NCBI GenBank assembly: GCA_028276785.1 | Contig: JAPYVP010000001.1 | Location: 35,401-67,400, forward strand | Direction: 5' to 3' | Length of the DNA stretch: 32,000 bases | Source of the DNA: Candidatus Nanopusillus sp. | GTDB lineage: Archaea; Nanobdellota; Nanobdellia; Nanobdellales; Nanobdellaceae | Notes under the pieces: model-generated | Told to the model about the DNA's origin: nothing | Seen by the model: the letters and a program-made list of their open reading frames with translations, nothing else | Databases searched by the model: none | Shown: in pieces, positions 2 through 18,737 of the stretch | How positions within the stretch are numbered: the first letter of the stretch is position 1 | How the letters are laid out: the number at the start of each line of letters is the position of its first letter | Made by a program: the position numbers and the translations under genes

Positions 2-694
2 GCAGGAGATATTGCGAAGGCAAAAGGAAAAAAATATGTAGAATCTGAAGATGTTATAGAAGCAAGAGAAAAAGCATTAACAATTGAAGAACAATTATCT
101 AAATACTATATTGAAAAAAAGAAAGAATATCAAATAATAAAAACTGAGGGATATGAAATTGGAAGGGTAAATGGTTTAGCGGTAATTGGATCAAGATTAT
201 ATTATTCAGGATTGGTATTACCTGTCGAAGCAGAAGTTGTACCTGGAGAAGGTAGTAAGGAAATTATTGCAACAGGAAATTTGGGAAAAATTGCAAAGGA
301 AGCAATAGTAAATGTATCTGCAGTAATAAAAAAGAAATTTGGAGAAGATTTGAAGAAATATAGAGTTCATGTTCAATTTTTGCAAACATATGAAGGTGTA
401 GAAGGAGATTCAGCTTCAATAACTGTTGCAACTGCAATAATATCTGCATTAAAAAATTGGCCGGTAAGACAAGATTTGGCAATGACAGGTTCTTTATCAA
501 TAAGGGGGGAAGTATTACCTGTTGGTGGTATAATAGCAAAAATAGAAGCAGCTATAGAATCTAAATTAAAAGAAGTTATAGTACCTGAAGGTAATTATAA
601 TGATATACCAGAAGATCTATTTGATAAAATAAGGATAACACCTGTAAAAACAATAGATGAAGTTATAGAAATTGCAACTGGTAGAAATATTTAA
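2..694 (+). CDS. lon: Archaeal Lon protease (LonB-type), C-terminal proteolytic domain; 5' end lies outside the window
   Basis: Frame 2 is open from the window edge ([26 protein letters not shown]...) into the listed ORF. Carries the Lon Ser-Lys dyad context [16 protein letters not shown] ... [24 protein letters not shown]. Confidence 0.9.
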
Positions 695-718: not shown

Positions 719-3700
719 ATGAAAAAGATATATTTGCTATCATTTCTCTTGTTTTCATTATATTCAATATTTTCTCAAGGGTATAATATATGGCATTCAG
801 AATATTTATATAAACCAACAGCATTTTTAAGTATAAATTTATTAAATAATAATTTATCTGTAGGTCAAACATTATATTATAATGTATATATAAATTATAG
901 AGATATTTATTATATACCAAATGCATCATTAGTAATACAAATAATACAAAAAACCGATAATAATGGTATCTACCCATTCCAATTTACATCAAATAATCAA
1001 GTATATGAATATGTTATAAAAAACATATATTTACAACCAGGAGAATCTTTAAATATACAATTAAATTATACAATTCCGGATAATCTACCTTCCGGATATT
1101 ATTATGTTGTTGCATATTTGTACACACCTTTAAGCGAAATAGATGGTTTACCATTTATATATTATCCAGGAGTATATAAAGAATTTTATGTAAATAATCC
1201 AAATAATGTTCCGGAAATTTATATTATAAAAGATCATACATATTTAAGTTCTTCTGCAATATATACATGGGGTAGTTTATTATCATCATCAGGATATTAT
1301 TATTCTTCATTAAGTGGACCTACTGGTTATGGTGTTTCAAATTATATTAATTTAACAGTTGGTATATATTCAAGTATAGATACTAATGCTACTTTGAATA
1401 TTTTAATATCCCCATGGGATGATATTCTATATGATCCAATATATAATTATACTGAGGATATACAATTAAAGGAAGGATATAATACAATAAATATTCCATA
1501 TATAAATGTTGCAATATTGAATCCAAATGCATATTCATTAAAAATAAGTTTACTATATAATAATCAAACAAAATCTATATATAGATTAAGATTTATTGTT
1601 CTAGGTCCAACAACAAGATTGGGAGGTGTATATTTACAGGGTAACGGAAATTTAACATTTATAGTAGCCCCATCTCCAGATCATTATACATATCCAGTTA
1701 CTCCAAATGTAGTGGCAGAAGTATATTCAAATATACTTGGATTTAAAGAGAATATACAATTGGGAAATATAAGTTGGAATAATACTAAATTTACTTATGT
1801 AAATCTAAAGTTACCATTAAATTCTACCAGCTTTGATTTATGTATAAACTTATATTCTAATAATAATTTCTTGAATAATAATTTAAATTATGGTTATTGT
1901 ACATATTATTTCATAAATAAATCAAATACTTATGGAATTCCATTAGATAATTTAATTTATGTAAACTATACAAATAATTACTTCTACATATGTTCAAATA
2001 TTTCTGGAATATTAAATATAGGATACAATTCTGAATCAAACATAATATATACTACAAGTATAAATAATAATTGTTTAAATTATACATTGGATAATGGGGT
2101 TTACTATATTTCTTTCTATTCATCTCAATATTCAAATCAATGGGTAATAGATAATACAGTAATGCAAATTCCATATAATAAAAGTATAAACCAAACCCAA
2201 CCAATAAATAATGTACAAAACAATTATAATTATCCAAACTATTATTTAATAATATTAATAATTTTTGCTGTAATAATATTATTTATGATATTGAGAAGAA
2301 AAAAATTATTTATCTTTGCATTAGTTTTATTACCACTATTATTTAATGTAAATTCTCAGGAACTATATTTAAGTACAAGCCAAATATGTACACCATCAGA
2401 TTCATTAAATATAACAACAAGAGGATTTAATGGATCTGTAACAGTTTCTTATAAGTTTTATAATTCATCTAATGTTTCACAAATTTTCGCAAGTGGTAAT
2501 TATAGTTATTCAGGAAGTAATATATCTATTTATAATTATACAGTATACTTTAATAATTTACCATTAAATTTACCAAATAATATAAATTCTGCAATAATAA
2601 ATTATAATATAACTGTTAAAAATTGTACATCATCCAATTGTAGCCAATATTATTATAATGGATCAATATATTTAAATTATCCATATTATTTTGAATATTA
2701 TGCAAACCCCATATATCAAGGATCAAATGATGCTGGACGAATAATTCCAGGTTGTCCTTCTTCAAGTAGGTTATTAAATAGTACATACTTTAACTTTACA
2801 TTAATTTTTCCAAATGGAACGAGTGTAGTTACTAGAACAAATTGTCCTGGATCGGGAGATTCATACTGGGGTCAAAATTTATGTGATTTATATTTAAGTG
2901 ATTATACTAACGATGCTGGAAATTATACATATTATGGAAGATATTATTATAACAATATATCATTTAATCAATCATTTATTAATAATCCATTACAAGTATT
3001 AGTAGCCAATTCTGGAGAATTTACTACTCAATCATGTTCTCATGCATGGACAATAACCAGTGTTAGTTCAAATCCTATGTCTATATACTTTTCATATTAT
3101 GGACCATATTCAGGATCATATTATACATATTATAATGGAATATATGTTTTAGCGCAGAATACTTCTGTAGGATTTAATGTAAGTAGTGGATATAACATTT
3201 TGTGTAGTGATGGTGTTACAAGAAATAATATACCTTCTGTTGTTGCTTGGTTATATAGTTCAAATCAATATTATAATCCAAGTTCTTTCCAATATGTACA
3301 AGGTATATCGAATCTTCCATTTAATTTCACACAATACGGTATAAGTAGAAATATTGTTTATAATATATATCCAAATAAAGGATTATTAATATCAAAAAAT
3401 TTCCCATCTGGAGATTCTTACTTTACTTTGTATAATTTTAGTAATAATGCTGGTTATTATGTAATATATAGAGATTATATAAAAACAATATGTGATAATC
3501 CGGTGAATTATATATGTGATGCAAATGGAAATTTGTGTAATATTAGTTATATAACTGGACAGGCACAAGGATGGTTACCAATATCTCCAGAACCCGGATA
3601 TTATTTATTAGTAATAAATCCAAATGCTACTGTATACTTACAAAATGTAACGTATTATCCATATATTTACAATGTAGATCCAGGTGTTGCAATTTATATC

Positions 3701-4981
3701 GGTAATATATCTAACGTTGGAATTGGAAATCTTACAATAATTGTAAACCAAACACTTCCAGCTAAATCAATGAGCTTCTTATTACAACAGCAACAAAATT
3801 CACCACTATATATTTATTTCCCAACAAATTTATGTCCACATTATGACTGTAGAATAAATTATAGTGTAACATATCAAAATGCGTATGGATTGACAGTTTA
3901 TCCTTCAGTAACATATTACGGATATGTAGATATCAAATGGAATACATTAAATATATATACTAATCCATCATTAACGCAGATAACATATGGAAAACCATCA
4001 AACATAACATTGGCAATACAAAATACAGGACCAGTACCTGCTAAAAACATATCCGTACAAAATGTATATTATAATCCAAATTGTATACAGGTATTAAATA
4101 CTGGTGGTCAGATAGATTCATTAGATACGAATAGCATAGGTTATTTAAATGTAGAAATTAATATAACAAATCTATATTGTTCTTCACAGGATTATAATAT
4201 AACGTTTACAATTTATGGATGGAATACCTACATATATAATTATTCAATAATATTACCAGTAAGTTATATAATTTCTCCACCAAACGGAGCACAATTACAA
4301 TCATTAACAACATTCAATATAGTAGATAAGAATGCACAAGAATGTTATATAATATTTAATGGAGCTCAATTCTCTAGAAATTGTGATTCAAATTTTGTAT
4401 ATCAACAATATATGTGTGCAGGATCATTATGTAATACGCAAATTCAATCAGTAAATAATTATGCAAAGTTCTTTGGAAATTATATGTACTATAATTATTT
4501 AATGAATCAAACATCAATAATAGGAATAGCAGTTCCAACAAATGTAATAGGTTTATATGTAGGACAAGAATATGAATATATAATCTTGATAAAGAATTTA
4601 GTACCAACAAATATTCAATGTTCTCTGACACCAATTCCATCAACCACAAATAATAATGCAATTGTTACTAACTATAGTGTAAATGGTGTAAATAATAATG
4701 TGTTTACTATAAGTCCTTACGGATCTTCAGAATTAAACATAAGAATCTTGGGAGCTTCTAGTGGTGTAAGTAATTTAATATATGGCATATCATGTAATTC
4801 TACATATGGGTCTTCAACATTTAGTACTCAAGTTCCAATATACATATTGGGACCAAATAATGTAATAGCCAATTATACGCAACCTTCTCAAATAGTAGTA
4901 TCTGAAGGAGTATCTTTAACAGATTTAATTGGAATTGGAAGTTTAATATTGGGATTATTTGTTTTGCTTAGTATAATCTAA
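719..4981 (+). CDS. Giant (1420 aa) secreted/membrane-anchored surface glycoprotein candidate (S-layer- or adhesin-like) with two ectodomains
   Basis: N-terminal Sec-type signal MKKIYLLSFLLFSLYSIFSQG. Dozens of N-x-S/T sequons and N/Y/S/T-rich composition. Internal TM plus second signal-like segment near residues 508-546. C-terminal hydrophobic anchor LIGIGSLILGLFVLLSII. Several beta-sandwich-like (CARDB-like) stretches, e.g. GKPSNITLAIQNTGPVPAKNISVQNVYYN. The second half is Cys-rich. No confident family assignment. Confidence 0.8.
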   Translation: MKKIYLLSFLLFSLYSIFSQGYNIWHSEYLYKPTAFLSINLLNNNLSVGQTLYYNVYINYRDIYYIPNASLVIQIIQKTDNNGIYPFQFTSNNQVYEYVIKNIYLQPGESLNIQLNYTIPDNLPSGYYYVVAYLYTPLSEIDGLPFIYYPGVYKEFYVNNPNNVPEIYIIKDHTYLSSSAIYTWGSLLSSSGYYYSSLSGPTGYGVSNYINLTVGIYSSIDTNATLNILISPWDDILYDPIYNYTEDIQLKEGYNTINIPYINVAILNPNAYSLKISLLYNNQTKSIYRLRFIVLGPTTRLGGVYLQGNGNLTFIVAPSPDHYTYPVTPNVVAEVYSNILGFKENIQLGNISWNNTKFTYVNLKLPLNSTSFDLCINLYSNNNFLNNNLNYGYCTYYFINKSNTYGIPLDNLIYVNYTNNYFYICSNISGILNIGYNSESNIIYTTSINNNCLNYTLDNGVYYISFYSSQYSNQWVIDNTVMQIPYNKSINQTQPINNVQNNYNYPNYYLIILIIFAVIILFMILRRKKLFIFALVLLPLLFNVNSQELYLSTSQICTPSDSLNITTRGFNGSVTVSYKFYNSSNVSQIFASGNYSYSGSNISIYNYTVYFNNLPLNLPNNINSAIINYNITVKNCTSSNCSQYYYNGSIYLNYPYYFEYYANPIYQGSNDAGRIIPGCPSSSRLLNSTYFNFTLIFPNGTSVVTRTNCPGSGDSYWGQNLCDLYLSDYTNDAGNYTYYGRYYYNNISFNQSFINNPLQVLVANSGEFTTQSCSHAWTITSVSSNPMSIYFSYYGPYSGSYYTYYNGIYVLAQNTSVGFNVSSGYNILCSDGVTRNNIPSVVAWLYSSNQYYNPSSFQYVQGISNLPFNFTQYGISRNIVYNIYPNKGLLISKNFPSGDSYFTLYNFSNNAGYYVIYRDYIKTICDNPVNYICDANGNLCNISYITGQAQGWLPISPEPGYYLLVINPNATVYLQNVTYYPYIYNVDPGVAIYIGNISNVGIGNLTIIVNQTLPAKSMSFLLQQQQNSPLYIYFPTNLCPHYDCRINYSVTYQNAYGLTVYPSVTYYGYVDIKWNTLNIYTNPSLTQITYGKPSNITLAIQNTGPVPAKNISVQNVYYNPNCIQVLNTGGQIDSLDTNSIGYLNVEINITNLYCSSQDYNITFTIYGWNTYIYNYSIILPVSYIISPPNGAQLQSLTTFNIVDKNAQECYIIFNGAQFSRNCDSNFVYQQYMCAGSLCNTQIQSVNNYAKFFGNYMYYNYLMNQTSIIGIAVPTNVIGLYVGQEYEYIILIKNLVPTNIQCSLTPIPSTTNNNAIVTNYSVNGVNNNVFTISPYGSSELNIRILGASSGVSNLIYGISCNSTYGSSTFSTQVPIYILGPNNVIANYTQPSQIVVSEGVSLTDLIGIGSLILGLFVLLSII
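2240..2356 (+). other. Internal TM helix - RRKK - signal-peptide-like segment inside the 1420-aa ORF (possible processing or internal initiation site)
   Basis: YYLIILIIFAVIILFMIL-RRKK-LFIFALVLLPLLFNVNS|QE. In-frame ATG (Met523) at 2285 would give MILRRKKLFIFALVLLPLLFNVNSQ, a textbook n-h-c signal peptide. A7 homopolymer at 2299-2305. Confidence 0.6.
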
Positions 4982-5245
4982 TTTTTTTAACTTCTTTCTT
5001 ATTTCTAATATTGCATCATGAATTGCAGCACCAAGAAACAAAGATGTTAATATATGTAATTCATATAAATATGTTAACATTCCGATTATTGATAAATATA
5101 CATGGTGAACTTTTGCCCTATATTTTTTCGTCCGTGTTTTAATTTCAATAAATAATTCTGGCGAAAATTTTTTAATTATATAATCTGCTGAGAAATATCC
5201 CGCCAAGAATGATAAACTATAAGTTATTGCAATAATATCGCCCAT
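4955..5245 (-). CDS. Small hypothetical membrane protein (96 aa, about 2-3 hydrophobic segments)
   Basis: ORF with hydrophobic segments (IIAITYSLSFLAGYF, VYLSIIGMLTYLY, ILTSLFLGAAI) and a TATA-like element about 27 nt upstream of its ATG. Overlaps the convergent 3' end of the surface protein gene by 27 nt. No recognisable family. Confidence 0.5.
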   Translation of the reverse strand: MGDIIAITYSLSFLAGYFSADYIIKKFSPELFIEIKTRTKKYRAKVHHVYLSIIGMLTYLYELHILTSLFLGAAIHDAILEIRKKLKKLDYTKQNK

Positions 5246-7188: not shown

Positions 7189-8025
7189 ATGTTTGCACAT
7201 GCTCAAGGTGAATATAATGAATCAAAATGGATAATTATTGGAATTCCATCAGAAATTGGTAGTTTATCACATGTAAAAAATTATATTGAAGGGCCTGAAT
7301 CCATTAGAGATGCATCTTACAGAATATTTTCTCCAATATTTGGGGAAATAAATATGGAAGATATATATGACTATGGAGATATAGATTTGGAAGATATAAA
7401 GGATCTGGATAAATTATATGAAAAAATATATAAAGAAATTAAAAAAATATATAGGAAAGATAAAAAGTACATATTTTTAGGAGGAGATCATTCAATAACA
7501 TATCCAATATTAAAAGTTATTAAAGAAAACTGGGGGGATTTTTACTTATTGTATTTTGATGCCCATCCAGATATTCACCCCGACCCATATCCAAATTATC
7601 AAAGTTTTATTTATCATTTAATAAAGGAAAATTATATTGAACCTGAAAAAATTATTTATGTTGGTATATCTAATTTATCGTTCGAAGAAAAAAATATAAT
7701 AAAGGAGTGGGTGATAAGATATTATAATCCTTTGGATGTTTGGGATAATATAAAAGAAATTTCAAAGGAGATATCAAATATATTAGAAAATAAAAATTTA
7801 TATATTTCAGTTGATATAGATGTATTTGATACAGGATGTGGACATTGGTTAGAAGGTATTGGAATCAGACCATATCATTATTTTAAGATTATAAAAGAAT
7901 TAAGAAATATAAATTTAATTGGTTTTGATTTAGTAGAATTATTTTCAAACGAAGTATGTGATAATTTGGCTGCAAAAATTGTCATTGAATCGATAGCAAT
8001 CTTTAATAAATCTATGCAATCATGA
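7189..8025 (+). CDS. speB: Agmatinase / ureohydrolase (arginase family)
   Basis: Metal-ligand motifs GGDHSITYP, FDAHPDIHPD and SVDIDVFD are present. 278 aa. The segment after DxDxxD (TGCGHWLEG) diverges from the usual P..aPG.g. Confidence 0.8.
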   Translation: MFAHAQGEYNESKWIIIGIPSEIGSLSHVKNYIEGPESIRDASYRIFSPIFGEINMEDIYDYGDIDLEDIKDLDKLYEKIYKEIKKIYRKDKKYIFLGGDHSITYPILKVIKENWGDFYLLYFDAHPDIHPDPYPNYQSFIYHLIKENYIEPEKIIYVGISNLSFEEKNIIKEWVIRYYNPLDVWDNIKEISKEISNILENKNLYISVDIDVFDTGCGHWLEGIGIRPYHYFKIIKELRNINLIGFDLVELFSNEVCDNLAAKIVIESIAIFNKSMQS

Positions 8026-8659
8026 AATGTGTTTGATTAATTCTTTTTACATATACTGTTACAAGTTGATAAAATGTAATATTATTTACTGAATAACATG
8101 GTATGTAATTACATATAATATTTCCATTTGTATTTTCTGTACATGTTATATTTCCATATAAATTTGTTGGAAATAAAAATACAAAAGTTTGATTTGAAGT
8201 ATTTTTATTACTCAAACAAAAACTATATAAGAAATAATAAAAGTCTGAATAATAATTTTTACATATGGTAAATTTGATATAATCTAAAGAATAATATACT
8301 GAAATTGGATACGTATATGTATTACAATTTCCATTGAAATTTATAATTCCAAAACTATAATTACCAATTTCTGCTCTAAATGTATAGGGAAATATTGTAC
8401 AATTTGGAAGCATATTATAATATGTTTGATTGAATTGCCTTATTTTTTCCATTGTTGTGAAGTATATTGGATAATTTGGATATCCTATACAATTTGGAGA
8501 AAATAGGTTGTATATTATTTCTTGTTGATATGAAAAAGAAGTTTGTTCTTTATAATTTGTTAAATTAATGCTAGAAAATATCGCTAATAAAAGTATCATA
8601 CCTAATAAAAATAATACAGTTAATATTGTTATAAATACTATGGAAAATTGTCCTTTCAT
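8012..8659 (-). CDS. Pilin-like secreted protein, Cys-rich (215 aa); last gene of the operon
   Basis: N-terminus MKG|QFSIVFITILTVLFLLGMILLLAIF matches the archaeal class III signal pattern (K-G|Q plus hydrophobic helix). 9 Cys and several N-x-S/T sequons. Confidence 0.6.
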   Translation of the reverse strand: MKGQFSIVFITILTVLFLLGMILLLAIFSSINLTNYKEQTSFSYQQEIIYNLFSPNCIGYPNYPIYFTTMEKIRQFNQTYYNMLPNCTIFPYTFRAEIGNYSFGIINFNGNCNTYTYPISVYYSLDYIKFTICKNYYSDFYYFLYSFCLSNKNTSNQTFVFLFPTNLYGNITCTENTNGNIICNYIPCYSVNNITFYQLVTVYVKRINQTHFMIA

Positions 8660-8667
8660 CTTTTATA

Positions 8668-9903
8668 TTAGAGATAATCTTTTATACATTCCTCTGGAAA
8701 TGGTATTGTTTCTGGGCATGTTGGGTTGTTAGGACATTGTCCAGGTAAACATACTGGACATTCTTCTCCACCAATTATACACATATAGCATTCAACTGGG
8801 ATTGAATAATAATATGGGAATGTAAATATTATTTTTGAATCTTCTCTACTTATGCTTACATCACCACATCCATCTATTGCGGAACATGAATATTTTTGAT
8901 CTTGTAATGTACAACTTTTCGATATTGCTTCTTTATTTGTTTCGTTGTATATTCCCGTACAACTATATATACAATTTAGATAATATTTGTTTGTTACATT
9001 TTCATAAAAAACTATTGAAGTAATAGTTATGGATTGTGGATATGTATTCCCATTATAATATACATTATATCTATTATCAGAACATTTTAATATTACTCTA
9101 CAAGCAATTTCTCTAGGATATAAACATATTTCACATAATGGAATATCCACACACTTATGTGGGATTATTGTTTCGTTACATTGAATATACGGATTATTTG
9201 AAAATTGTTCAAATCTCCTTGCACAATTATTGGTTGTAACATTATTAAATAATGTATTTACACAATCTTGAAAAGAACATTCGGGAAATTCTTCTAAAGA
9301 AAATTGGTATGCTAGATTATATAAATAAAATGCTGGATTGTTTGTTATATTTGATGTAGATGCATAGGGAATTATTGAACCAGAGGAAGGTCCAGTAATA
9401 TTTATATATACTCCTTGAACATAAACAGGAAAGTTATAATTATATTTTCCGGAATATATATCATCACATGTTCCTAGAATACCAGCTCGATAATTATTTG
9501 AAAAATTGAAAGATATATTATATGGATGATAGTATCTATATGCAAACAAATATTGTTCCCCATAACTTATTAAGCTTGTAAATCCAGAAGTTAGCAAATT
9601 ATTGTAATATTGAATCGCATTTTCACATGGTTGTGGTAATATACACTGAGGAGGAAAAGAAGCCCAGTTTTCTTTTCCCCAACCACTTGTTCCTGCTACA
9701 TAAGATTTTGCATAACCCTCCTGTGTTAGTGCTGTTTGTAAATATCCTAAAAGGTAGTTTGATAAAGTTGATAAAGATGTAAATCTACCAAAAACAACAT
9801 TCTGATTATAATTATATGTTAATGCATAAAAAGATAGAAGAATTATTAATATAGAAACTGTCAAAAATAGAACTACATAAATACTTTCTGTTTGATTTCT
9901 CAT
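8668..9903 (-). CDS. Large Cys-rich pilin-like secreted protein (411 aa)
   Basis: MRN|QTESIYVVLFLTVSILIILLSFYAL N-terminus. About 24 Cys, including a C-terminal cluster CYMCIIGGEECPVCLPGQCPNNPTCPETIPFPEEC. Many sequons. 4-nt overlap with the upstream gene. Confidence 0.6.
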   Translation of the reverse strand: MRNQTESIYVVLFLTVSILIILLSFYALTYNYNQNVVFGRFTSLSTLSNYLLGYLQTALTQEGYAKSYVAGTSGWGKENWASFPPQCILPQPCENAIQYYNNLLTSGFTSLISYGEQYLFAYRYYHPYNISFNFSNNYRAGILGTCDDIYSGKYNYNFPVYVQGVYINITGPSSGSIIPYASTSNITNNPAFYLYNLAYQFSLEEFPECSFQDCVNTLFNNVTTNNCARRFEQFSNNPYIQCNETIIPHKCVDIPLCEICLYPREIACRVILKCSDNRYNVYYNGNTYPQSITITSIVFYENVTNKYYLNCIYSCTGIYNETNKEAISKSCTLQDQKYSCSAIDGCGDVSISREDSKIIFTFPYYYSIPVECYMCIIGGEECPVCLPGQCPNNPTCPETIPFPEECIKDYL

Positions 9904-11105
9904 AATTTTAATTTAACATGAAGGTATATAAGTGTTAATATAATCATTGTTACTACCAATCCATGTATTATACCTAGTATTTTCATTATATTTGGTATAG
10001 ATAATATACTTAATGGAGGACCTCCATATACTGCAAATTCTAGTAACTCTCCAATTACAACTTGTATTATAAGTAATATTCCAATTGTAATACCAATAGC
10101 TTTTTTAATTGGTTTTTTAACATTACTAAATAGTTTATAATGTATTCCCATGAAGAAAAATATCATAGCCATAAGATATCTTGTATGTAGAGCATAAGAA
10201 GTAAAATCTTTATATGATGTAAATAATGCGCCCAAAAATATTATCAAGACCATAGTAAATAGTAAGAAGTAATTTGTGAAATGATCATTTTTCATGCTCT
10301 TATAAATTAAGAAATAAATAATAAATTCAAATATGGATAAAAATATAAGAGCTTTATATACAGTAATCTGATATTTTACAATTAAACCCTCTGAAGCTAG
10401 ATTACTATAAGATGATAACCCGTATATAGCTATAATAAGTTGTAATATTATAATAAAAAATATTAATAAAAATATGTACTTTTTATATTTATAAATTTCT
10501 GATAATTTTTTGAATATTTTTGTTCTTACTATAAGTATTTCATTGCCATTAGAATATACAATCAGAAATAGAAATATGGCAAATACAATAAACAAAGTTG
10601 AATATAATATTTTGAAAGTATAAATATTTGATAATGCAAAATTAATGATTGAACCAACTATAGGCCCTGTTGCTACTTCTAAATCTATGGTTATAACGTT
10701 GATTACCAATTCAAGGAAAAATAGTATTATAAATAAAACTAAAGAAAGCACATAAAATATTAAAGATTTTTTTGAAATATAAAAGTTATTTTCAAATAAA
10801 TAATATCCTAGAGCAAATGCTATAAAGTAAAATATCCAATAATTTATTGAAAGACCAAGTGATAAACGTACTAATAAAGGCCAATCTTGATAATAGAGAG
10901 TTCCAAAAATTATAAATGGTATAAGTAAAAATACTGACTTATATATCAAAGAAGTATTCTTCGAATTTTTTAATATAAAAGATAATAAAAATAGATATAT
11001 TGTACCAAAGATAATTATGTTAATATTAAATTTACTATCAAAAGTAAAAAATAAGAATATTAATAGATATAAAAGAAATAAAATTTTATCTTGTTTTTTT
11101 ACCAT
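9900..11105 (-). CDS. Polytopic integral membrane protein of unknown function (401 aa, roughly 10 or more TM segments)
   Basis: Almost entirely hydrophobic segments separated by short K/N/S loops. Embedded in the operon with overlaps at both ends (7 and 4 nt). No GxGD prepilin-peptidase motif and no recognisable family. Confidence 0.6.
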   Translation of the reverse strand: MVKKQDKILFLLYLLIFLFFTFDSKFNINIIIFGTIYLFLLSFILKNSKNTSLIYKSVFLLIPFIIFGTLYYQDWPLLVRLSLGLSINYWIFYFIAFALGYYLFENNFYISKKSLIFYVLSLVLFIILFFLELVINVITIDLEVATGPIVGSIINFALSNIYTFKILYSTLFIVFAIFLFLIVYSNGNEILIVRTKIFKKLSEIYKYKKYIFLLIFFIIILQLIIAIYGLSSYSNLASEGLIVKYQITVYKALIFLSIFEFIIYFLIYKSMKNDHFTNYFLLFTMVLIIFLGALFTSYKDFTSYALHTRYLMAMIFFFMGIHYKLFSNVKKPIKKAIGITIGILLIIQVVIGELLEFAVYGGPPLSILSIPNIMKILGIIHGLVVTMIILTLIYLHVKLKL

Positions 11106-12727
11106 ACTGTTAATTTAGAAACAAGATATCCGCCTAGAAAAGGCATATCTACTGGCAAATATATGTAATATACATATATGTTTGTGTTTGGTGGTATTGG
11201 ATATCCTAAACTTACACTATTTTGACTACTTTGGTAAATATAAGCGTTTAATTCTTCTTTGTTTCCTGTATCGGTAATACAATATGCTCTTGCCATTGCA
11301 ACGCCATTTGATCCAGCATGTGGATCATAATATACTGCAGAAATTATAAACTGATTTGTATTTGGATCCCTATCATTTATTACCCATCTAGTAATATTAA
11401 ATCTATAAAATCCTTGAGCATATGTATTAATACCACCCAAGTAAACTAAAGGACACTCCTTTCCAACAATAATTCCGTTTATATTTTGTATATCATTGTA
11501 TACACCAGTTGGACATCTTATTGTTCTTCCATTTATTTTATATTCACACAAAGGATCTGCTGCTAAAAATACATAATCTGGTTGTCCATTTTTATTTAAA
11601 TAAGAAATATATAGAGCTACTGTTTCATGCCATGGATAATCTATAAATACTTGTTGACAATTTGGTAGTATATTTACTATACCTCTATAAAAAGATCCTA
11701 CAACTAATACCTGACCACCCCCACAAAGGGAATTACCTGTATATCTTGTACCAAATTCTTGTTGACATGCTGCATCTAAATATTCTCTTGGGATTATAAA
11801 ATCTGCTAGTCTATTTATGTCAGTAGCAGTTTTATAAACAGGAGGACCTTGATAATAATAAGGTGTAGAGGTTAAATATTGATTATTAGTTGCTGGACAA
11901 GATCCTGTATATATGCATAAGAATCCAGAAAATAAATTTGGTAAGTTAGATACTGGATGAGCTGGCGTACCACCTACACCTAAAAAATTTGGAAATAAAT
12001 GCCATTCACTATTGGGGCAATATACAGAAGCTTCAGTAAAATTATGATTTGGAAGTATTCTTGATAGAGGTTCACAATATCCTAATCGTATGGCTATTTC
12101 TTGTGATTGTTGTGGATAAAATGATTGTAAGCCCCATGCATTTGTTGATAATGTTTGATGAAAAGGTGCTGTTGCATTGACCCATCCAGCTCCATATATA
12201 GTTAGGCTTACTGGTATATCAATATTCTGTGTATAATTATTTGTAAAGAAATACGTATAATTCCATTCATACCATTGTTTGCCATTTTGATCTGGTGGAG
12301 GTCTCATTGAACATGGATCCCAATTATTTATATTGCCAGCTACTATGAACATCTGGACAATCCATCCAGTTATTGGTGGTACAAAATATATTGTAAGGTT
12401 CCATCTATTTCCATATATACTATTGAAATAATTTGTTATAGTCTGCGATATATTTGTACATATATTTTGATTTATGCAGTATGTATCGTTTCCAGAAGAT
12501 GAAAAATAAGATAATAAAAATGCGTAGGATAAGTTAACTTTATTATCATTAACATATGATAATAAAACAATACTATTCTGGATTGTTAGTGTGTATTGAT
12601 TTTCTACATTATATGTTTGCATTGTTCTTTGATTATAGTTACTTGATATTAAGGTATATAATAGAACTAATAATGATATTATTGAAATTATAATAACAAA
12701 TGTTATAGTATTTATTTGGTTTCTCAT
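11099..12727 (-). CDS. Large Cys-rich pilin-like secreted protein (542 aa)
   Basis: MRN|QINTITFVIIISIISLLVLLYTLI N-terminus. About 14 Cys, G/P/Y/N-rich globular part, sequons. 4-nt overlap with the upstream gene. Confidence 0.6.
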   Translation of the reverse strand: MRNQINTITFVIIISIISLLVLLYTLISSNYNQRTMQTYNVENQYTLTIQNSIVLLSYVNDNKVNLSYAFLLSYFSSSGNDTYCINQNICTNISQTITNYFNSIYGNRWNLTIYFVPPITGWIVQMFIVAGNINNWDPCSMRPPPDQNGKQWYEWNYTYFFTNNYTQNIDIPVSLTIYGAGWVNATAPFHQTLSTNAWGLQSFYPQQSQEIAIRLGYCEPLSRILPNHNFTEASVYCPNSEWHLFPNFLGVGGTPAHPVSNLPNLFSGFLCIYTGSCPATNNQYLTSTPYYYQGPPVYKTATDINRLADFIIPREYLDAACQQEFGTRYTGNSLCGGGQVLVVGSFYRGIVNILPNCQQVFIDYPWHETVALYISYLNKNGQPDYVFLAADPLCEYKINGRTIRCPTGVYNDIQNINGIIVGKECPLVYLGGINTYAQGFYRFNITRWVINDRDPNTNQFIISAVYYDPHAGSNGVAMARAYCITDTGNKEELNAYIYQSSQNSVSLGYPIPPNTNIYVYYIYLPVDMPFLGGYLVSKLTVW

Positions 12728-13581
12728 TTTAGATAATATAATAGCATAAATAGGCCTATTATTACTATAATTATAACTATTGCTGCTGGCAAAATCAAAT
12801 TAACGTTGTTGTTGTTATTAGTACTTACATTTGGTTGTGGATAAATTAATTGTTGGTTATTATTTGTTAAATTTACTTCAGTTTGATTTATACATTCAAA
12901 TACGCCAGTACAAGATATATAAACAATATTTGGTGGTGGACATTTTTGTAGAAATTCTTGATATAATTGATTTAATGAATAATTGTATGGACATCTAAAC
13001 CAGTTACCTTGGAAAGATAGATTTTCTGGACAATAACCACAGCCGTAAAAATTATGGTAGTATGATAATAGTTGCTGATAGGATTCATTACCTGCTAAGT
13101 AAGAAGGTGGTATATATGGGGGATCAAAACAAGGGTAAATTTGATTAGAACATGGTGGATAATACCAAGGCATATTTGGACAATTTAATAGACTATCACA
13201 TAATGTTTGATTCTCCTCTGGTATAATTACATCTTGATATGCAGATGGAGGAATTAATAGATATGGACTAACTAATGTACCGTTTGGATATTTACAATAA
13301 CTGCTATTTACATATATCAATCCATAACGAGTACAAAATGAATACTCTGGAGGTACATTATTTTCATAATATTGTAGAGCATCAAAATATGTATTATTTA
13401 TAATACAATAGACACCTGTATCATTTGTATAATAAGTTCCTCCACCATATTCACAATAAACTGCTATTGGATTTTTCATAGAATATATACTATTCATAGA
13501 GTATATGTATATAATATATAAAAAAATTATAAAAATAATTATAATAAGTGCTAATAAATTTCTATTTTGCGAGAGTAACAT
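12724..13581 (-). CDS. Cys/Pro-rich surface protein with DUF333-like module, N-terminal hydrophobic helix and C-terminal TM anchor (285 aa)
   Basis: KNPIAVYCEYGGGTYYTNDTGVYCIINNTYFDALQYY resembles the DUF333 pattern NPA..YC...GG.......G.C. 14 Cys. Pro-rich stretch CPNMPWYYPPCSNQIYPCFDPPYIPPSY. C-terminal LILPAAIVIIIVIIGLFMLLYYLK. Confidence 0.55.
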   Translation of the reverse strand: MLLSQNRNLLALIIIIFIIFLYIIYIYSMNSIYSMKNPIAVYCEYGGGTYYTNDTGVYCIINNTYFDALQYYENNVPPEYSFCTRYGLIYVNSSYCKYPNGTLVSPYLLIPPSAYQDVIIPEENQTLCDSLLNCPNMPWYYPPCSNQIYPCFDPPYIPPSYLAGNESYQQLLSYYHNFYGCGYCPENLSFQGNWFRCPYNYSLNQLYQEFLQKCPPPNIVYISCTGVFECINQTEVNLTNNNQQLIYPQPNVSTNNNNNVNLILPAAIVIIIVIIGLFMLLYYLK

Positions 13582-15118
13582 TTTGTATTGCTACAATTGA
13601 AAACTTAGGAAATGATAGGCCGAAAGGCGACTGCTCAAATGGTATGTATATGTATCCATCTTGCATCCAATAAACCCCTCCACAAGGTGCTCCCATTGCA
13701 GTGCTGCAAGCTCGATAATTTGAATAATATTTATAGCACTCACTTTTACTACGAGTTATCATACGCATTCTACCATCTGAAGTAAAAGCTAAGCATCCTG
13801 TTACACGTCCCCAAGAATTTTGAATTATCCAACATTTTGGAGTTCCATATACTTCTTGACATAGTTGGGATTGTGTATCATATCCAACCAACAGCATAGC
13901 ATGACCCGTATCACCTACAAAATATAAAGGATACATGTTTGGATTAGATCCGCCCTCTCCAGCCATATAGCCACTAACCGTCAATGGTCCATAACACAGT
14001 AAATATTGAATTATTTCCTGACTTGATAGAGACTTCCCTCTTTGAACTAATTCCATAACTTTGTGTGAATAATACATTGGTGAAGTAGGTCCATTATAAT
14101 CAAAACCACATACATCATCAGGATAACTGATGGCATCGTCATTCGTACTACATCCTTTTAAAGTAGAACTATAATATCTTCGTCCAGGATCTGCTGGTAT
14201 ACCATATTGAGATGTATATAGTATACCGTAGTATGGCAAACCACCATTACAACCTATATTATGTTCACAATATTTTGGAGTATTTGGATATCTATAATTG
14301 CACTTTATTGCTATGTATGCGGCAGATAATGTTAATCCTTCATTAGGTTTATTATTTCTTATCATATAGATTGCAGCAATCCCGTTTGAAGATGCAAATG
14401 CCCAATAGTCTCCACAAACCCCTTGATCGCCTACTGGAGGTAAATAATTATTCCCATCTACATCACCCCAGAAAAATTTTGGTTGTCCAGTATATTTAAC
14501 TAAACATCTACTATTTGGGTCAATAGTATTATTAGTTTGATTAGTTTGATTTGTATTATTGTTATTTGTTTGATTGGTATTATTTGTCTGATTAGTCTGA
14601 TTATTTTGATTATTATTATTATTCTGATTTTGATTATTGTTATTATTTTGATTATTATCTGGATTTATAACTATAATAGTCCCGTTAGGCAAATATCGAT
14701 TAAATATAAAAATTGTATCATTAAAATCTGCAGAAATAAAAATAGTATTATTTGTACTAACCAAATATATATAATTATTTGGATATAAAAAACTTACATT
14801 TTGACCATTATTGTATAAAATTACGGATTTATTTTGAAAATTAATCGTATAATTATTATTATTATATTGGATTATTAATTCGTTGTCTCTTGAATATAAT
14901 ATAATTCCACTTGGTATATCAACTTTTATATAATATGTACCTTGCATATTATTTATTGTATCCTGTAAATTTTGTAAATTATTGACAAAATTTTCAAATA
15001 TGAATTTTTCTTGTTCCCTTTTAACATTTGTAGAATATTGATAATAAATTAAGAAAGATAATGATACGATTAATAATATTATTGCTACTGAAAGCAAATT
15101 TAACTGATTCTTTTTCAT
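13562..15118 (-). CDS. Pilin-like N-terminus + small beta-rich module + N/Q/T linker + papain-fold (peptidase C1-like) domain with Cys-to-Tyr at the nucleophile position (518 aa)
   Basis: MKKN|QLNLLSVAIILLIVSLSFLIYY. C1 motifs GDQGVCGDYWAFAS (papain QGSCGSCWAFS), GCNGGLPYYG, GHAMLLVGYD and WIIQNSWG. Gln, His and Asn are conserved, but the nucleophile codon is TAT (14405-14407, minus strand) instead of TGT/TGC. Confidence 0.75.
   Translation of the reverse strand: MKKNQLNLLSVAIILLIVSLSFLIYYQYSTNVKREQEKFIFENFVNNLQNLQDTINNMQGTYYIKVDIPSGIILYSRDNELIIQYNNNNYTINFQNKSVILYNNGQNVSFLYPNNYIYLVSTNNTIFISADFNDTIFIFNRYLPNGTIIVINPDNNQNNNNNQNQNNNNNQNNQTNQTNNTNQTNNNNTNQTNQTNNTIDPNSRCLVKYTGQPKFFWGDVDGNNYLPPVGDQGVCGDYWAFASSNGIAAIYMIRNNKPNEGLTLSAAYIAIKCNYRYPNTPKYCEHNIGCNGGLPYYGILYTSQYGIPADPGRRYYSSTLKGCSTNDDAISYPDDVCGFDYNGPTSPMYYSHKVMELVQRGKSLSSQEIIQYLLCYGPLTVSGYMAGEGGSNPNMYPLYFVGDTGHAMLLVGYDTQSQLCQEVYGTPKCWIIQNSWGRVTGCLAFTSDGRMRMITRSKSECYKYYSNYRACSTAMGAPCGGVYWMQDGYIYIPFEQSPFGLSFPKFSIVAIQNVTLAK
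14525..14659 (-). repeat. Imperfect short tandem repeats encoding an N/Q/T low-complexity linker
   Basis: Encodes DNNQNNNNNQNQNNNNNQNNQTNQTNNTNQTNNNNTNQTNQTNNT. The plus strand shows reiterated TTGATTAGT / TTGATTATT-type units. Confidence 0.7.
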
Positions 15119-15157
15119 TATGATCTATTAATATCTAAAAAATTTTTTAAAATTTTT

Positions 15158-15598
15158 TTAACTTGGGTTTTCTATATAAATTGTTACATCTGTTGGAGAT
15201 GTTTTTTTAACAAGCAATGGTATTTTTTGATTTGGACTCCCACGTGACAATTCATAGAATAATCCGGAAGTATAATATTGAATCATATTATTTGTTGTAT
15301 TTATTATTACATTGCAAGGCACTGTATAATTATAATATTTGTCATATATGTAACAACTTAGTAAATTACCATTACTATATATATAATTTAGATATTTGTT
15401 TATTTCAATAGTAATATGAAATTCTGTTCCATTATTGGAATAGCACGCTCTTTCAACTGTTGTATATAAATTTTGACATGAAGATATATTTTTATATAAT
15501 AATTGAGTCTCATTATTTATGCCTACAAATTTAAAATATAAATATAAAGATAAACCAAAAGCAACAATTGCTATAATTATCCAAAACCACTTTTCCAT
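15158..15598 (-). CDS. Small pilin-like / signal-anchored secreted protein (146 aa)
   Basis: MEKWFWIIIAIVAFGLSLYLYF N-terminal helix, 4 Cys, sequons. Member of the run of four small genes. Separated from the next downstream gene by the only gap over 10 nt in the operon (39 nt). Confidence 0.55.
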   Translation of the reverse strand: MEKWFWIIIAIVAFGLSLYLYFKFVGINNETQLLYKNISSCQNLYTTVERACYSNNGTEFHITIEINKYLNYIYSNGNLLSCYIYDKYYNYTVPCNVIINTTNNMIQYYTSGLFYELSRGSPNQKIPLLVKKTSPTDVTIYIENPS

Positions 15599-15600
15599 CT

Positions 15601-16014
15601 TTATCCTTGAATATTAATATAAACATAATTTCCTGCCGAATAAATTAATATATACTTTCCAGGATTTATATTATAATTACAATTTTGCATTACAACATTC
15701 GGATCTATGCTGTTTACTTTATTTATTAAATCTTGACATGTAAATGATGGTCCTTGATAATGAATCAAATAACATAAACCTTGGGCTTTTTTATAATAAC
15801 ATGATACTACATTCATTGCAACAGTTGTCATTGAATTTACATTTGTTTCTACTATAGTTTGTGTATTATTATATTTTGGCATTATGTTATCTACATATGA
15901 AGATACGTTCCCTCTTAATACAAATATTATTCCTATAATTGTTATGGTAACAATTATCCCGATAAATATTAAAAAAGTATAATTAATTGGAAGCTCTTGA
16001 ATTCTCATTGCCAT
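15601..16014 (-). CDS. Small pilin-like protein (137 aa)
   Basis: MAMRIQELPINYTFLIFIGIIVTITIIGIIFVL N-terminus, 4-5 Cys, C-terminal strand motif KYILIYSAGNYVYINIQG. Confidence 0.55.
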   Translation of the reverse strand: MAMRIQELPINYTFLIFIGIIVTITIIGIIFVLRGNVSSYVDNIMPKYNNTQTIVETNVNSMTTVAMNVVSCYYKKAQGLCYLIHYQGPSFTCQDLINKVNSIDPNVVMQNCNYNINPGKYILIYSAGNYVYINIQG

Positions 16015-16484
16015 ATTATAATATAACTATTGTTGTATATTATAAATATGCTGTTGTATGGATATATTCTTCCTTCACTATTATTTAAACGGAATATAAT
16101 TTTATTTGGATTAAATTTAGTATAATTTTGTACATATTGTATTAATGTTGTCGAATTTAGGACAATATTCTTATTTATATAAACATCATAACATATATCA
16201 AATAATTTATTTGTATTTACATTATTATTGTAACAATTTAATATTAATCCTACTATACTTGAATAAATTGTATCAATACTCTCATTTGAATATATAACAT
16301 TTATTGCAGAAGGATAATATTCTTTGCATGATGGGGAAAAACCGCCCTGTGATATTAATGTTTGACAATAATATGCTTGAGAATTACTAAAGAATTTTGT
16401 ATATATAATGCTTAATATAACTACGGCGGATATTATTGCTATTATTATTATAAATATAGTATCTATTGCTATGTCGTTCTTCAT
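16005..16484 (-). CDS. Small pilin-like protein (159 aa)
   Basis: MKNDIAIDTIFIIIIAIISAVVILSIIY N-terminus, 4 Cys, C-terminal motif NSIFIIYNNSYIIIWQ. 4-nt overlap upstream and 10-nt overlap downstream. Confidence 0.55.
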   Translation of the reverse strand: MKNDIAIDTIFIIIIAIISAVVILSIIYTKFFSNSQAYYCQTLISQGGFSPSCKEYYPSAINVIYSNESIDTIYSSIVGLILNCYNNNVNTNKLFDICYDVYINKNIVLNSTTLIQYVQNYTKFNPNKIIFRLNNSEGRIYPYNSIFIIYNNSYIIIWQ

Positions 16485-16765
16485 ATATAATGAATACTTC
16501 CGTTATAAATATATATAATTCTATAGCCAGAAGGTATTGTTATTCCATTTATTGTACAATTCTCACTAAGGAACACTTTAATATCAATTATTTCTCTAAA
16601 ACTTTTATCGTATAAATTTTTTAATTGCTGACAATTAATAGTTTGTATATTCTCTCCACCCAAATTATTTTTTACATTATAAATATAATAAAAAGAAAAT
16701 AGACTAGCAGCTACAATTAATATAAAGGTTATTATAATCCAATATATTGAATTTTGAAGTTTCAT
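16481..16765 (-). CDS. Small pilin-like protein (94 aa)
   Basis: MKLQNSIYWIIITFILIVAASLFSFYYIY N-terminus, 2 Cys, C-terminal motif YRIIYIYNGSIHYI. 4-nt overlaps on both sides. Confidence 0.55.
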   Translation of the reverse strand: MKLQNSIYWIIITFILIVAASLFSFYYIYNVKNNLGGENIQTINCQQLKNLYDKSFREIIDIKVFLSENCTINGITIPSGYRIIYIYNGSIHYI

Positions 16766-18732
16766 AATTTTATATCTGTTGGCAAATATGGGCCAAATAT
16801 TGTATATACTACTAATATTCCTACTATTGAAAATATTACATAAAATATTGTTCCAAACAGAAGATTCCTACCTATATAATATGAAGTCATTGTACTATCA
16901 AAGCCATATTTTATTCCAGCACTCATATATGATGTTATTATTACATATTCTATAAAAAATATGCCTATTATTGCTACAAAAAATGTTGGTGGTATTAAAT
17001 TATATAGATTAAATGTGGTTACAATAAAATTGAATAAACTAGATCCACCTCCCAGACCAAAAGATTGGCTTATCAATTGAAAGAAGTATGCAAGTGCAAA
17101 AAGCATTGAAACTATACCATTATTAAAAACTGTAACCATTGCAGAAATTAATGGTACTAGATTTCTTGATGTCATATCTATTAATCCAATTATTTCATTT
17201 AATATTTTTCTTACACTATATCTTATGTTGTTTACATTTTCTAAATTTGTTGATACGTTATATGCAATTTTTGATAAGGTTTCAGGACCCTTTGATGCAG
17301 AAGTAACCAAAAGTTGCATAGACTCTCTTACTAATTTTGATGGATATAAATTTAATGAACCAATTTTTGGATCAAATATAGATGTATTTAAATCATAACC
17401 CCTTCTTAAATTATATAATGTTGTTTTTAGGAAGTTTTCCATAACACCGGAAGATTTTATTATCTTATAATTATAATAGGTTTTTTCAATCACTATTTCA
17501 AATGGATAACCATCTTCTAATAGTGATGCAAATTCGTATACAACAATTGGAAACTCATTTTCTATTTCTTCAATTTCATATATTTTTTTAACTTTTTGGA
17601 AAGATGTCAAATAATAATAAGACCCAATACCTAAACCCAATCCCAGAGGTAATGTTAAAGTTAAAACAGAATATATTAATGCTCTATCTTGATAAACTAT
17701 ATTTAAATAATCACTTAAAAATCCTTGTGGGATAAGAGCAATTTTTATAGCTAAAGAAATTAAATGATAAATTCCTATAATTGCAATCGATCCCAATATT
17801 ATTGAAATTATTATTGCCGGAACTTCTTTATTTCCTAATTTAAATTTTCCAGGTTTTGGTAAATCCTTTGCTAATGATAAATCTGGAACGGCAAATGCAA
17901 ACGGATTTTTTGATAGAAAATTTTGAATTATTAAGAAGGTAATGACAGGTAGAATTATTATATACGAAAATGCTATGAAATAGAAACTTACAGTATTTAA
18001 CAAAAACACAGATATTATTGGTAACATCATCAAACTGACTATAGGCATCATTACTAAGAAAGATATAATAACTGTTGCCGGTTCTTTCAGAGCATCTACA
18101 TATGATTGGGATTTTTCTAAAGATTTCTTTAACACCCATCCTAATATTCTGTCTAATAATTTATTTATATCATCAATAGACGTTTTATATTTAATATTTA
18201 CAATATGTGTCATTGCATATACAAAATCTGGACTTAAATAAAACCATCTTCTCTGATAATATTCCAGTGCTGATTCAATATCTTTAAACTTACTTGTTTC
18301 TAAATTATATAATAATGATTTAAAGTCTGTTGCAATATAACCTTTCATATAATATGCTACATATTTTATTCCATTTTCTAGATTAGGATTTCTTTTTAGA
18401 TATAAAGATAAATATAATATTATCCATACAATTTCTGATGTTACCTGTATTCTAACAATTTGTGTATAGAATATTGGATAATATGCAAAATAGAATGATA
18501 ATATTAGTAAAGATATTAATAAAGAAAAAGCTAATTGAAAGCTTACAAAACTTAAAATAAGATATATAATTATAGAAAATATTGTTATAGTTATTACAGA
18601 GGAAAATATGTTATCTGGATTAGTATTTAATCTATTTAACCATAAATGAAATGCATATTTTTTATATATAGAATTGGGGGCTTTTATTTTTATTAAATTA
18701 AAATTATTGTAAAAATACTCAAAAAAATTCAT
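16762..18732 (-). CDS. FlaJ/ArlJ-TadC-PilC-like (T2SS-F superfamily) polytopic membrane platform protein (656 aa)
   Basis: Two soluble helical segments, each followed by TM bundles (about residues 110-215 and 395-520: ...SALEYYQRRWFYLSPDFVYAMTHIV... and ...FASLLEDGYPFEIVIEKT...LRRGYDLNTSIF...LVRESMQLLVTSASKGPETLSKIA...). This is the duplicated architecture of T2SSF/FlaJ proteins. Size and operon context fit. Assignment from architecture, not a computed alignment. Confidence 0.6.
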   Translation of the reverse strand: MNFFEYFYNNFNLIKIKAPNSIYKKYAFHLWLNRLNTNPDNIFSSVITITIFSIIIYLILSFVSFQLAFSLLISLLILSFYFAYYPIFYTQIVRIQVTSEIVWIILYLSLYLKRNPNLENGIKYVAYYMKGYIATDFKSLLYNLETSKFKDIESALEYYQRRWFYLSPDFVYAMTHIVNIKYKTSIDDINKLLDRILGWVLKKSLEKSQSYVDALKEPATVIISFLVMMPIVSLMMLPIISVFLLNTVSFYFIAFSYIIILPVITFLIIQNFLSKNPFAFAVPDLSLAKDLPKPGKFKLGNKEVPAIIISIILGSIAIIGIYHLISLAIKIALIPQGFLSDYLNIVYQDRALIYSVLTLTLPLGLGLGIGSYYYLTSFQKVKKIYEIEEIENEFPIVVYEFASLLEDGYPFEIVIEKTYYNYKIIKSSGVMENFLKTTLYNLRRGYDLNTSIFDPKIGSLNLYPSKLVRESMQLLVTSASKGPETLSKIAYNVSTNLENVNNIRYSVRKILNEIIGLIDMTSRNLVPLISAMVTVFNNGIVSMLFALAYFFQLISQSFGLGGGSSLFNFIVTTFNLYNLIPPTFFVAIIGIFFIEYVIITSYMSAGIKYGFDSTMTSYYIGRNLLFGTIFYVIFSIVGILVVYTIFGPYLPTDIKL

Positions 18733-18737
18733 TACCT

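Follow-up and report, generated by a model that had tools for sequence, protein, structure and literature searches.

A fused surface-protein gene of Candidatus Nanopusillus derives from a two-gene cassette of DPANN archaea and is probably processed at an internal signal peptide

Introduction

How does a single gene come to encode two large ectodomains, each with its own signal-like sequence and its own anchor, and does the cell keep the two joined? This question is raised by a stretch of 32,000 nucleotides (nt) of DNA from Candidatus Nanopusillus sp. (assembly GCA_028276785.1, contig JAPYVP010000001.1, positions 35,401 to 67,400 of the forward strand; hereafter the window), in which one open reading frame (ORF) encodes a protein of 1420 amino acids (aa). 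The first-pass annotation of this ORF had described a signal sequence, a first ectodomain, a transmembrane (TM) helix, the residues RRKK, a second hydrophobic stretch, a Cys-rich second ectodomain and a C-terminal anchor. This architecture is borne out in the ORF translation, as are the positions of Met523 (ATG at 2285) and of a run of seven A (A7) at 2299-2305. Three options had been proposed for the join: a hairpin-anchored single protein, a precursor cut by signal peptidase, and a fusion of two formerly separate genes through internal initiation or a slippage or assembly event at the A7 tract. In addition, the protein had been suggested as a candidate for the S-layer. The window has a G+C content of about 25 % and carries archaeal genes including split rpoB, rpoA'/A'', S24e and S27ae, and its first 8 kb share 88.6 % DNA identity with the complete genome of Nanopusillus acidilobi.

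Results

The two halves are encoded by neighbouring genes in other archaea

When 1.84 billion representatives were searched exhaustively with a profile of residues 22-1185, 182 matches were returned. Fused full-length relatives were found among them (P0003, P0011, P0016, P0017 and P0018), and most of the 182 are stand-alone proteins of about 500-600 aa that cover profile positions ~15-500 only, which correspond to the first ectodomain and the TM helix that follows it (TM1). There were also matches to the C-terminal half only; in P0141, residue 17, near the N-terminus of that protein, aligns with profile position 507. A word-indexed homologue search with the profile of the N-terminal half yielded three fragments only. 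The stand-alone proteins related to the N-terminal half (500-640 aa; hereafter N-like proteins) are composed of a signal peptide, a beta-sandwich ectodomain, a C-terminal TM and a short basic tail, and their motifs YPxQ, W[DE]D, SLYRxR and SPDHYTxP recur in ectodomain 1 of the window protein as YPxQ, WDD, SxYRxR and SPDHYTYP. The natural C-terminus of these proteins aligns with RRKK of the window protein.

To examine the genomic surroundings of such genes, one genome per GTDB species was scanned for a pattern, which gave 31 loci with the labels Nanohaloarchaeota, Iainarchaeota/Diapherotrites, Altiarchaeota, Aenigmatarchaeota and Nanopusillaceae, and three more loci were added by exact look-up. 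A local search of all ORFs of these loci used the profile of the N-terminal half and, iteratively, that of the C-terminal half. At 20 non-redundant loci, the gene directly after an N-like gene lies on the same strand and is related to the C-terminal half (C-like gene), with a gap of -47 to +70 nt between the two. Stop/start overlaps of the form ATGA or TAATG are frequent in these split pairs and are the usual signature of translationally coupled subunits. Each C-like protein has a signal peptide of its own and contains a Cys-rich core of about 450 residues; a TM usually forms the C-terminal end, but not in the Iainarchaeota type, which is without a TM. The earlier suggestion that two formerly separate proteins had been joined is therefore upheld by the occurrence of the halves as adjacent, co-oriented genes, and ORF 719..4981 is a fusion of a conserved two-gene cassette.

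Two further observations concern the split pairs. The C-like partners at L020, L023, L026, L027 and L028 (two labelled Iainarchaeum, the others archaeal metagenome-assembled genomes, MAGs) have no C-terminal TM and end in short Cys-containing tails (..CFPQ, ..FCQ, ..CFSN, ..CYNN and ..CFGG); such partners may depend on the N-like protein for their retention. The Altiarchaeota-labelled MAG locus L021 (6890-12786) carries two N-like/C-like pairs in tandem.

The fusion is inherited and the reading frame is intact at the join

A homologue search with the window protein gave ten relatives from sources including Nanobsidianus stetteri, strain YN1 and Nanobdella aerobiophila (MJ1_0095), all of them encoded by single ORFs. 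Nine of these relatives are 1410-1461 aa long and one is 1173 aa long; the identity to the window protein is 57-100 %, apart from the 1173-aa relative at 31 %. The succession of TM, basic loop, short hydrophobic stretch and small-residue motif is present in all of these homologues and recurs in four fused relatives that are more distant. The fusion is also carried by the complete genomes of N. acidilobi, N. aerobiophila and YN1, and the reading frame is continuous at all 13 junction DNAs examined, although the junction nucleotides vary between lineages. Syntenic orthologues consist of one uninterrupted ORF except at L006, and the gene order TFIIB ... lonB, fused gene, S24e, S27ae, UDG, arginase is kept even at 31 % identity (L001). 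The comparison of orthologues thus gives one gene in the Nanopusillus/Nanobdella lineage and two genes in other DPANN and Altiarchaeota-labelled genomes, and neither a stop nor a frameshift between the halves was found at the join in any lineage. These results indicate that the fusion is real and ancient and is not an assembly error.

The A7 tract deserved attention in this respect, since an assembly error or a programmed frameshift there could have joined or separated two genes, and a single-base shift at 2299-2305 would terminate the N-terminal half after 5-13 extra codons. The run sits within the Lys codons of RRKK. At the junctions of L001, L002 and L003, no run of at least six A is present and the codons vary. 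Because the junction DNA varies in this way, with most of the fused orthologues, which reach down to about 30 % identity, being without an A-run at the join, and because the frame is continuous throughout, including in the three closed genomes, the tract represents merely AAA Lys codons in an AT-rich genome of 25 % G+C and not a scar of slippage or assembly. The artefact explanation is refuted by these comparisons and retains practically no credibility.

Locus L006 (1-4679), a metagenome contig with 6x coverage, differs from the other orthologues. An in-frame TAA stands in place of the Ser codon of the others about 65 codons before TM1, its called gene (P0015) restarts at MMKKKK, and the first ~230 residues of its C-terminal half are duplicated.

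A single fused ORF was seen in all eight loci of the Nanopusillus/Nanobdella type and in L040, an Aenigmatarchaeota-labelled MAG. Since the lonB...S24e context also surrounds the more distant fused genes of P0016 and P0018, the fused genes of the Nanopusillus/Nanobdella lineage are attributed to one old fusion. The fused gene of L040 has a different context, in which the upstream genes are those for PAC2 and an M50 peptidase and the downstream gene is that for L11. Its N-terminal part is closest to stand-alone N-like proteins (38-39 % identity), its C-terminal part is closest to the downstream partners of those same N-like genes (41 % for L011 and 38 % for L010), and both parts share only about 27-29 % identity with the Nanopusillus proteins. 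Because the context differs and both halves are nearest to split pairs, L040 probably represents an independent second fusion of an N-like/C-like pair, as judged by a similarity ranking, which is not a phylogeny. A general functional link of the cassette to lonB was considered and rejected, because the adjacency occurs only in the fused Nanopusillus/Nanobdella lineage and the split pairs and L040 sit elsewhere.

The join retains the anchor of one protein and a signal-peptide-like segment of the other

The order of elements at the junction is YYLIILIIFAVIILFMIL-RRKK-LFIFALVLLPLLF-NVNS↓QE (arrows here and below mark proposed signal peptidase cuts). The join keeps the anchor and the basic tail of the first protein together with the hydrophobic region (h-region) and the c-region of the signal peptide of the second, and RRKK is, according to the alignments, the counterpart both of the basic tail with which the N-like protein ancestrally ended and of the internal signal's n-region. 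Across orthologues, TM1 is 18-21 residues long, without Pro and almost without Gly, and is followed by a strongly basic loop of 4-12 residues; the basic n-region variants among the fused forms are RRKK, RKKK, KKKK, KRWK, KKRG and KIRKK. In all fused forms, the second hydrophobic stretch includes Pro or Gly; it comprises 12-14 residues and ends in the motif [IV]-x-[S/A/G], with the variants V-N-S↓Q, I-H-S↓Q, V-Y-S↓Y, V-F-S↓S, I-K-A↓D and F-S-F-S↓I at positions -3/-1. Segment 526-546 of the window protein has the hallmarks of a class I signal peptide, namely a basic n-region, a short h-region with a helix breaker, a small residue at -1 and a small or aliphatic residue at -3. On these sequence grounds, the second hydrophobic stretch has the features of a cleavable Sec signal peptide and not those of a membrane span, and a cut by signal peptidase I is predicted between S546 and Q547 (nt 2356 and 2357).

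The N-terminal and internal c-regions were compared in each lineage and found to change together. In the window group, YN1 and MJ1, the N-terminal signal ends in IFS↓Q or IYS↓Q and the internal one in NS↓Q or HS↓Q; L001 has VYG↓L and VYS↓Y; and L040 has FSFA↓D and FSFS↓I. The c-region IFS↓Q of the N-terminal signal is kept across orthologues and is similar to the internal NVNS↓Q and IHS↓Q. With regard to the N-terminal signal of the window protein, which had been assigned to residues 1-21, its Sec type is retained and the putative cut is placed after S19 instead of G21. The motif IYS↓ also occurs in another secreted protein of the locus. A signal peptidase gene has been reported for N. aerobiophila (Kato et al. 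2023, bioRxiv 10.1101/2023.10.27.564410).

Among the three options for the join, cleavage by signal peptidase appears to fit the sequence evidence best, because the h-region is short and contains a helix breaker and because the conserved -3/-1 motif changes with the N-terminal signal. In the proposed sequence of events, the N-terminal signal would begin Sec translocation of ectodomain 1, TM1 would halt the transfer with RRKK remaining in the cytoplasm, the short second hydrophobic stretch would restart translocation as an internal signal, and signal peptidase I would cut after NVNS (S546). The fused protein is thus probably cut into two anchored proteins. They would be N-glycosylated and made at a fixed 1:1 ratio, and would probably assemble into a surface complex consisting of an anchor and its partner.

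Domain layout and structure models

The features of the gene and of its product are collected in Table 1. The first ectodomain is poor in Cys (4 in residues 22-507) and the second is rich in it (21 in residues 547-1395), and the conserved core of the latter carries the motifs GDPDWG, SCSH, CSDG, AWLY, DYIKTxCxxPxxYIC and GW. The richness in N-glycosylation sequons (N-X-S/T) noted earlier proved significant, with 54 sequons in the protein compared to 30.6 +/- 4.8 in composition-preserving shuffles (z = 4.9). TM1 contains Met523, encoded by ATG 2285-2287.

Table 1. Positions of the fused gene, of the parts of its product and of the upstream gene in the window
Feature	Position (nt)	Strand	Remarks
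Whole fused ORF	719..4981	+	1420 aa plus stop
N-terminal Sec-type signal peptide MKKIYLLSFLLFSLYSIFS↓Q, residues 1-19	719..775	+	putative cut after S19
Ectodomain 1 (N-like module), residues 20-507	776..2239	+	aligns end to end with stand-alone 500-640-aa proteins
TM1 YYLIILIIFAVIILFMIL, residues 508-525	2240..2293	+	ancestral C-terminal anchor of the N-like protein; would act as stop-transfer
RRKK, putative cytoplasmic loop, residues 526-529	2294..2305	+	from the alignment and the DNA of 13 junctions
Internal signal-peptide-like segment: h-region LFIFALVLLPLLF (530-542) and c-region NVNS (543-546)	2306..2356	+	
Ectodomain 2 (C-like module), residues 547-1401	2357..4921	+	Cys-rich, 37 sequons
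Conserved Cys-rich core, about 450 aa, residues ~646-1096	2654..4006	+	common to stand-alone C-like proteins (exhaustive profile search, hmmsearch, jackhmmer)
C-terminal hydrophobic anchor, residues 1402-1420	4922..4978	+	without basic tail
3' end of lonB	2..694	+	24 nt upstream of the fused ORF; runs past the left window edge

The AlphaFold model of the N-terminal half (predicted local distance difference test score, pLDDT, of 66) is all-beta, with 4-5 immunoglobulin (Ig)/macroglobulin (MG)-like sandwiches and no coiled coil. The model of the C-terminal half (pLDDT 49) is confident only in the flanking Ig-like domains and leaves a Cys-rich core of about 370 aa unmodelled. Foldseek searches with both halves returned generic arrays of multiple beta-sandwiches or MG domains only, such as complement C3 and alpha-2-macroglobulin, at template modelling scores of at most 0.3, and no functional conclusion was drawn from the models or these matches. 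Neither Pfam nor NCBIfam gave a match for the full protein, either half or the stand-alone relatives, with two exceptions: accessory DUF2341/LamG domains in one partner, and a source-annotated LPXTG anchor (PF00746) on one stand-alone N-like relative, which probably reflects the TM plus basic tail. The profiles of both halves had no PDB sequence match at E <= 1, and the stand-alone proteins are named 'hypothetical protein' in the databases.

Neighbouring loci

At the 3' end of the fused gene, a 96-aa ORF on the opposite strand (4955-5245) converges on it with an overlap of 27 nt; a gene for 90-100 aa is called in its place in L002-L006, without a Pfam match. Further downstream, an operon of about 11.5 kb on the minus strand (8012-19502) encodes small to medium-sized proteins rich in Cys, Asn and Tyr, each with one N-terminal hydrophobic helix preceded by a short charged start (MKGQ.., MRNQ.., MKRRG..), as well as polytopic proteins of 656 aa (16762-18732) and 401 aa (9900-11105). 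The operon resembles a type IV pilus-like locus, and one of its products has a weak GspG-like match (E 0.014). L002-L004 have at least the arginase-proximal part of this operon at the corresponding position; L001 lacks it and carries an M48 peptidase gene there. A FlaJ/TadC-type locus with many non-synonymous single-nucleotide polymorphisms has been reported in Nanoarchaeota (PMC6142677), and the operon may correspond to it. Within the operon, 13562-15118 on the minus strand encodes a papain-family (C1) cysteine peptidase (Pfam 6e-17) with an N-terminal helix and a long N/Q/T low-complexity linker.

The upstream neighbour LonB is about 1070-1094 aa long in N. aerobiophila, YN1 and L041, compared to 611-620 aa in L001, L004, L005 and L042. 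The long genes lie upstream of the orthologues at 6691-9975 in L002, 6712-9978 in L003 and 1764-4976 in L041, and a LAGLIDADG_3 match suggests an intein in LonB of L003.

Discussion

Weighing the alternatives

We consider, with moderate confidence, that the observations are best explained by a fused cassette whose product is cut at an internal signal into two anchored glycoproteins, which would probably form a surface complex other than the main S-layer. Several points weigh against this explanation. Each product has its own anchor, so that cleavage is dispensable for the topology, and about 21 residues would stay on the first protein after the cut as an odd hairpin tail. The interaction of the halves is deduced from gene order and fusion only, and the C-half homology of many downstream genes comes from an iterated search in a small local database; at least six stand-alone C-like proteins were found directly at a whole-library E <= 1e-11. 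The dispensability of the cut also speaks for an uncleaved protein with three TM segments, in which the TM1-RRKK-h-region hairpin tethers both ectodomains, each anchored regardless, and the fusion has left the signal-like features behind as relics. Such a topology is self-consistent and the fusion has long been tolerated, but the second stretch, which numbers just 12-14 residues and includes Pro or Gly, is short to span the membrane stably, and a relic would be expected to drift at an overall identity of about 30 %, whereas every fused lineage has retained the -3/-1 motif, which follows that of the N-terminal signal. We therefore regard the uncleaved hairpin as unlikely, though it deserves to be kept in mind. 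The Met that is conserved before the basic loop hints at an added or alternative route, in which the C-terminal half is made additionally or instead from Met523 (MILRRKK..., with its own signal peptide), through an internal promoter with a leaderless mRNA or through internal initiation. The loop is preceded by a Met, 0-3 residues away, in 15 of 16 fused sequences, which have only 3-9 Met per ~1400 residues, compared to 3 of 13 stand-alone N-like proteins; this count, however, is confounded by shared ancestry, and the orthologue in L005 has ATA and no other start codon nearby. Shine-Dalgarno motifs were absent before all 32 window gene starts inspected (e.g. 719, 5300, 20827 and 29016) and TATA-like elements lie ~10-30 nt upstream of many gene starts, and these two features together suggest that transcripts in the window are mostly leaderless. 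The Ile/Leu codons of TM1 likewise give TATA-like AT-rich DNA about 25 nt upstream of Met523, but such strings are ubiquitous at 25 % G+C and carry no specific promoter mark. The stop in the N-terminal half of L006, with an ORF that resumes at MMKKKK, also favours an internal start but comes from a contig of only 6x coverage, and the persistence of the fused ORF would be left unexplained. An internal start is, in our judgement, rather improbable.

It had also been proposed that the protein is a good S-layer candidate, in which case an SlaB-like stalk and an SlaA-like canopy would be made as one precursor. An anchor with a large glycosylated partner, gene adjacency as for slaA/slaB and the strong enrichment of sequons agree with this. 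The direct orthologue MJ1_0095 (57 % identity, same synteny) is described in the N. aerobiophila preprint as a protein of the cell surface that has Ig-like folds, numerous sites for N-glycosylation and a TM at its C-terminus (bioRxiv 10.1101/2023.10.27.564410). It is listed there among 'other cell surface proteins' with an expression rank below 100th, no S-layer homologue was found in MJ1 by Kato et al., and MJ1_0160 (1st) and MJ1_0707 (12th) are proposed as the S-layer proteins instead (bioRxiv 10.1101/2023.10.27.564410). Because of this ranking, which is literature data for the relative N. aerobiophila and not for the window organism, and because of the two proteins proposed instead, a role as the main S-layer protein is not supported, and a lower-abundance surface complex fits better. 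YN1 has orthologues of MJ1_0160 and MJ1_0707, and its orthologue of the fused protein, YN1_4260, is not mentioned in the YN1 paper. Further arguments against a major S-layer protein are the lack of a sequence match to any PDB chain, the lack of a coiled coil in the N-half model and the TM that the large half carries itself; we consider this role very unlikely.

Comparison with known systems

Polyproteins with internal signal peptides that are cut by signal peptidase are known from viruses, namely bunyavirus Gn-Gc and the flavivirus/hepacivirus envelope precursors, and the cytochrome b-c1 precursor FbcH of Bradyrhizobium japonicum is reportedly of the same kind. The window protein resembles these precursors in having one ORF, a TM as stop-transfer, a short basic cytoplasmic loop and a second signal with a -3/-1 motif. 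They give rise to two cooperating membrane proteins at 1:1, which is likewise proposed here with the cleavage being a prediction. Unlike them, the window protein is a cellular archaeal surface protein without sequence or fold kinship to the viral or FbcH proteins, and its origin by fusion of adjacent genes is directly visible in relatives. The SlaA/SlaB pair of the Sulfolobales, whose genes are co-expressed, offers another parallel, in that the gene of a smaller beta-sandwich protein with a TM at its C-terminus lies beside that of a large, heavily N-glycosylated partner, which is also without an anchor in some relatives of the window protein. In contrast to SlaA/SlaB, there is no detectable homology, the gene order is reversed, a coiled-coil stalk is lacking, the large half in the window has its own TM, and the expression in a cultured relative is modest.

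A strain-specific fusion that joins an ArtA (archaeosortase) substrate with the gene lying downstream, and whose product is processed into N- and C-terminal fragments, has been described in Haloferax volcanii (PMC6098224). In both cases an archaeal surface gene is joined to its downstream neighbour, so that a C-terminal anchor signal now lies in the middle of an ORF. The H. volcanii case, however, involves PGF-CTERM and archaeosortase, a single strain and an unrelated partner of cytoplasmic type, whereas the fusion in the window is ancient, is conserved at the family level and joins the partners of one cassette. In the passages of bioRxiv 10.1101/2023.10.27.564410 reached by term searches, neither the internal TM with the second signal peptide nor the origin from two genes nor the wider DPANN cassette is mentioned, and a literature search on internal signal peptides in archaea found nothing relevant.

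Implications for DPANN cell surfaces

Two lines of evidence, the translational coupling of the pair and its repeated fusion, suggest that N-like and C-like proteins act together. The lack of a TM in the C-like proteins of the Iainarchaeota type also agrees with a complex. It is a tentative proposal that the two constitute an undescribed heterodimeric envelope complex across DPANN, which Nanopusillus and Nanobdella make as a virus-like polyprotein split by a host-type signal peptidase. If it is true, this would be, to our knowledge, the first cellular case in Archaea of a glycoprotein polyprotein split in such a way by signal peptidase, and the conserved internal Met could additionally let the partner be made alone. 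One odd ORF has in any case led to a defined and widely conserved two-gene cassette, both protein families of which are unannotated. The fused form offers a ready means of testing how an internal signal is dealt with by Sec and signal peptidase in archaea, for which cultured N. acidilobi, N. aerobiophila and YN1 exist. DPANN surfaces mediate attachment to the host, and a role is known for almost none of their surface proteins; if the proposal holds, the N-like/C-like complex could be a component of the apparatus through which these ectosymbionts make cell-cell contact.

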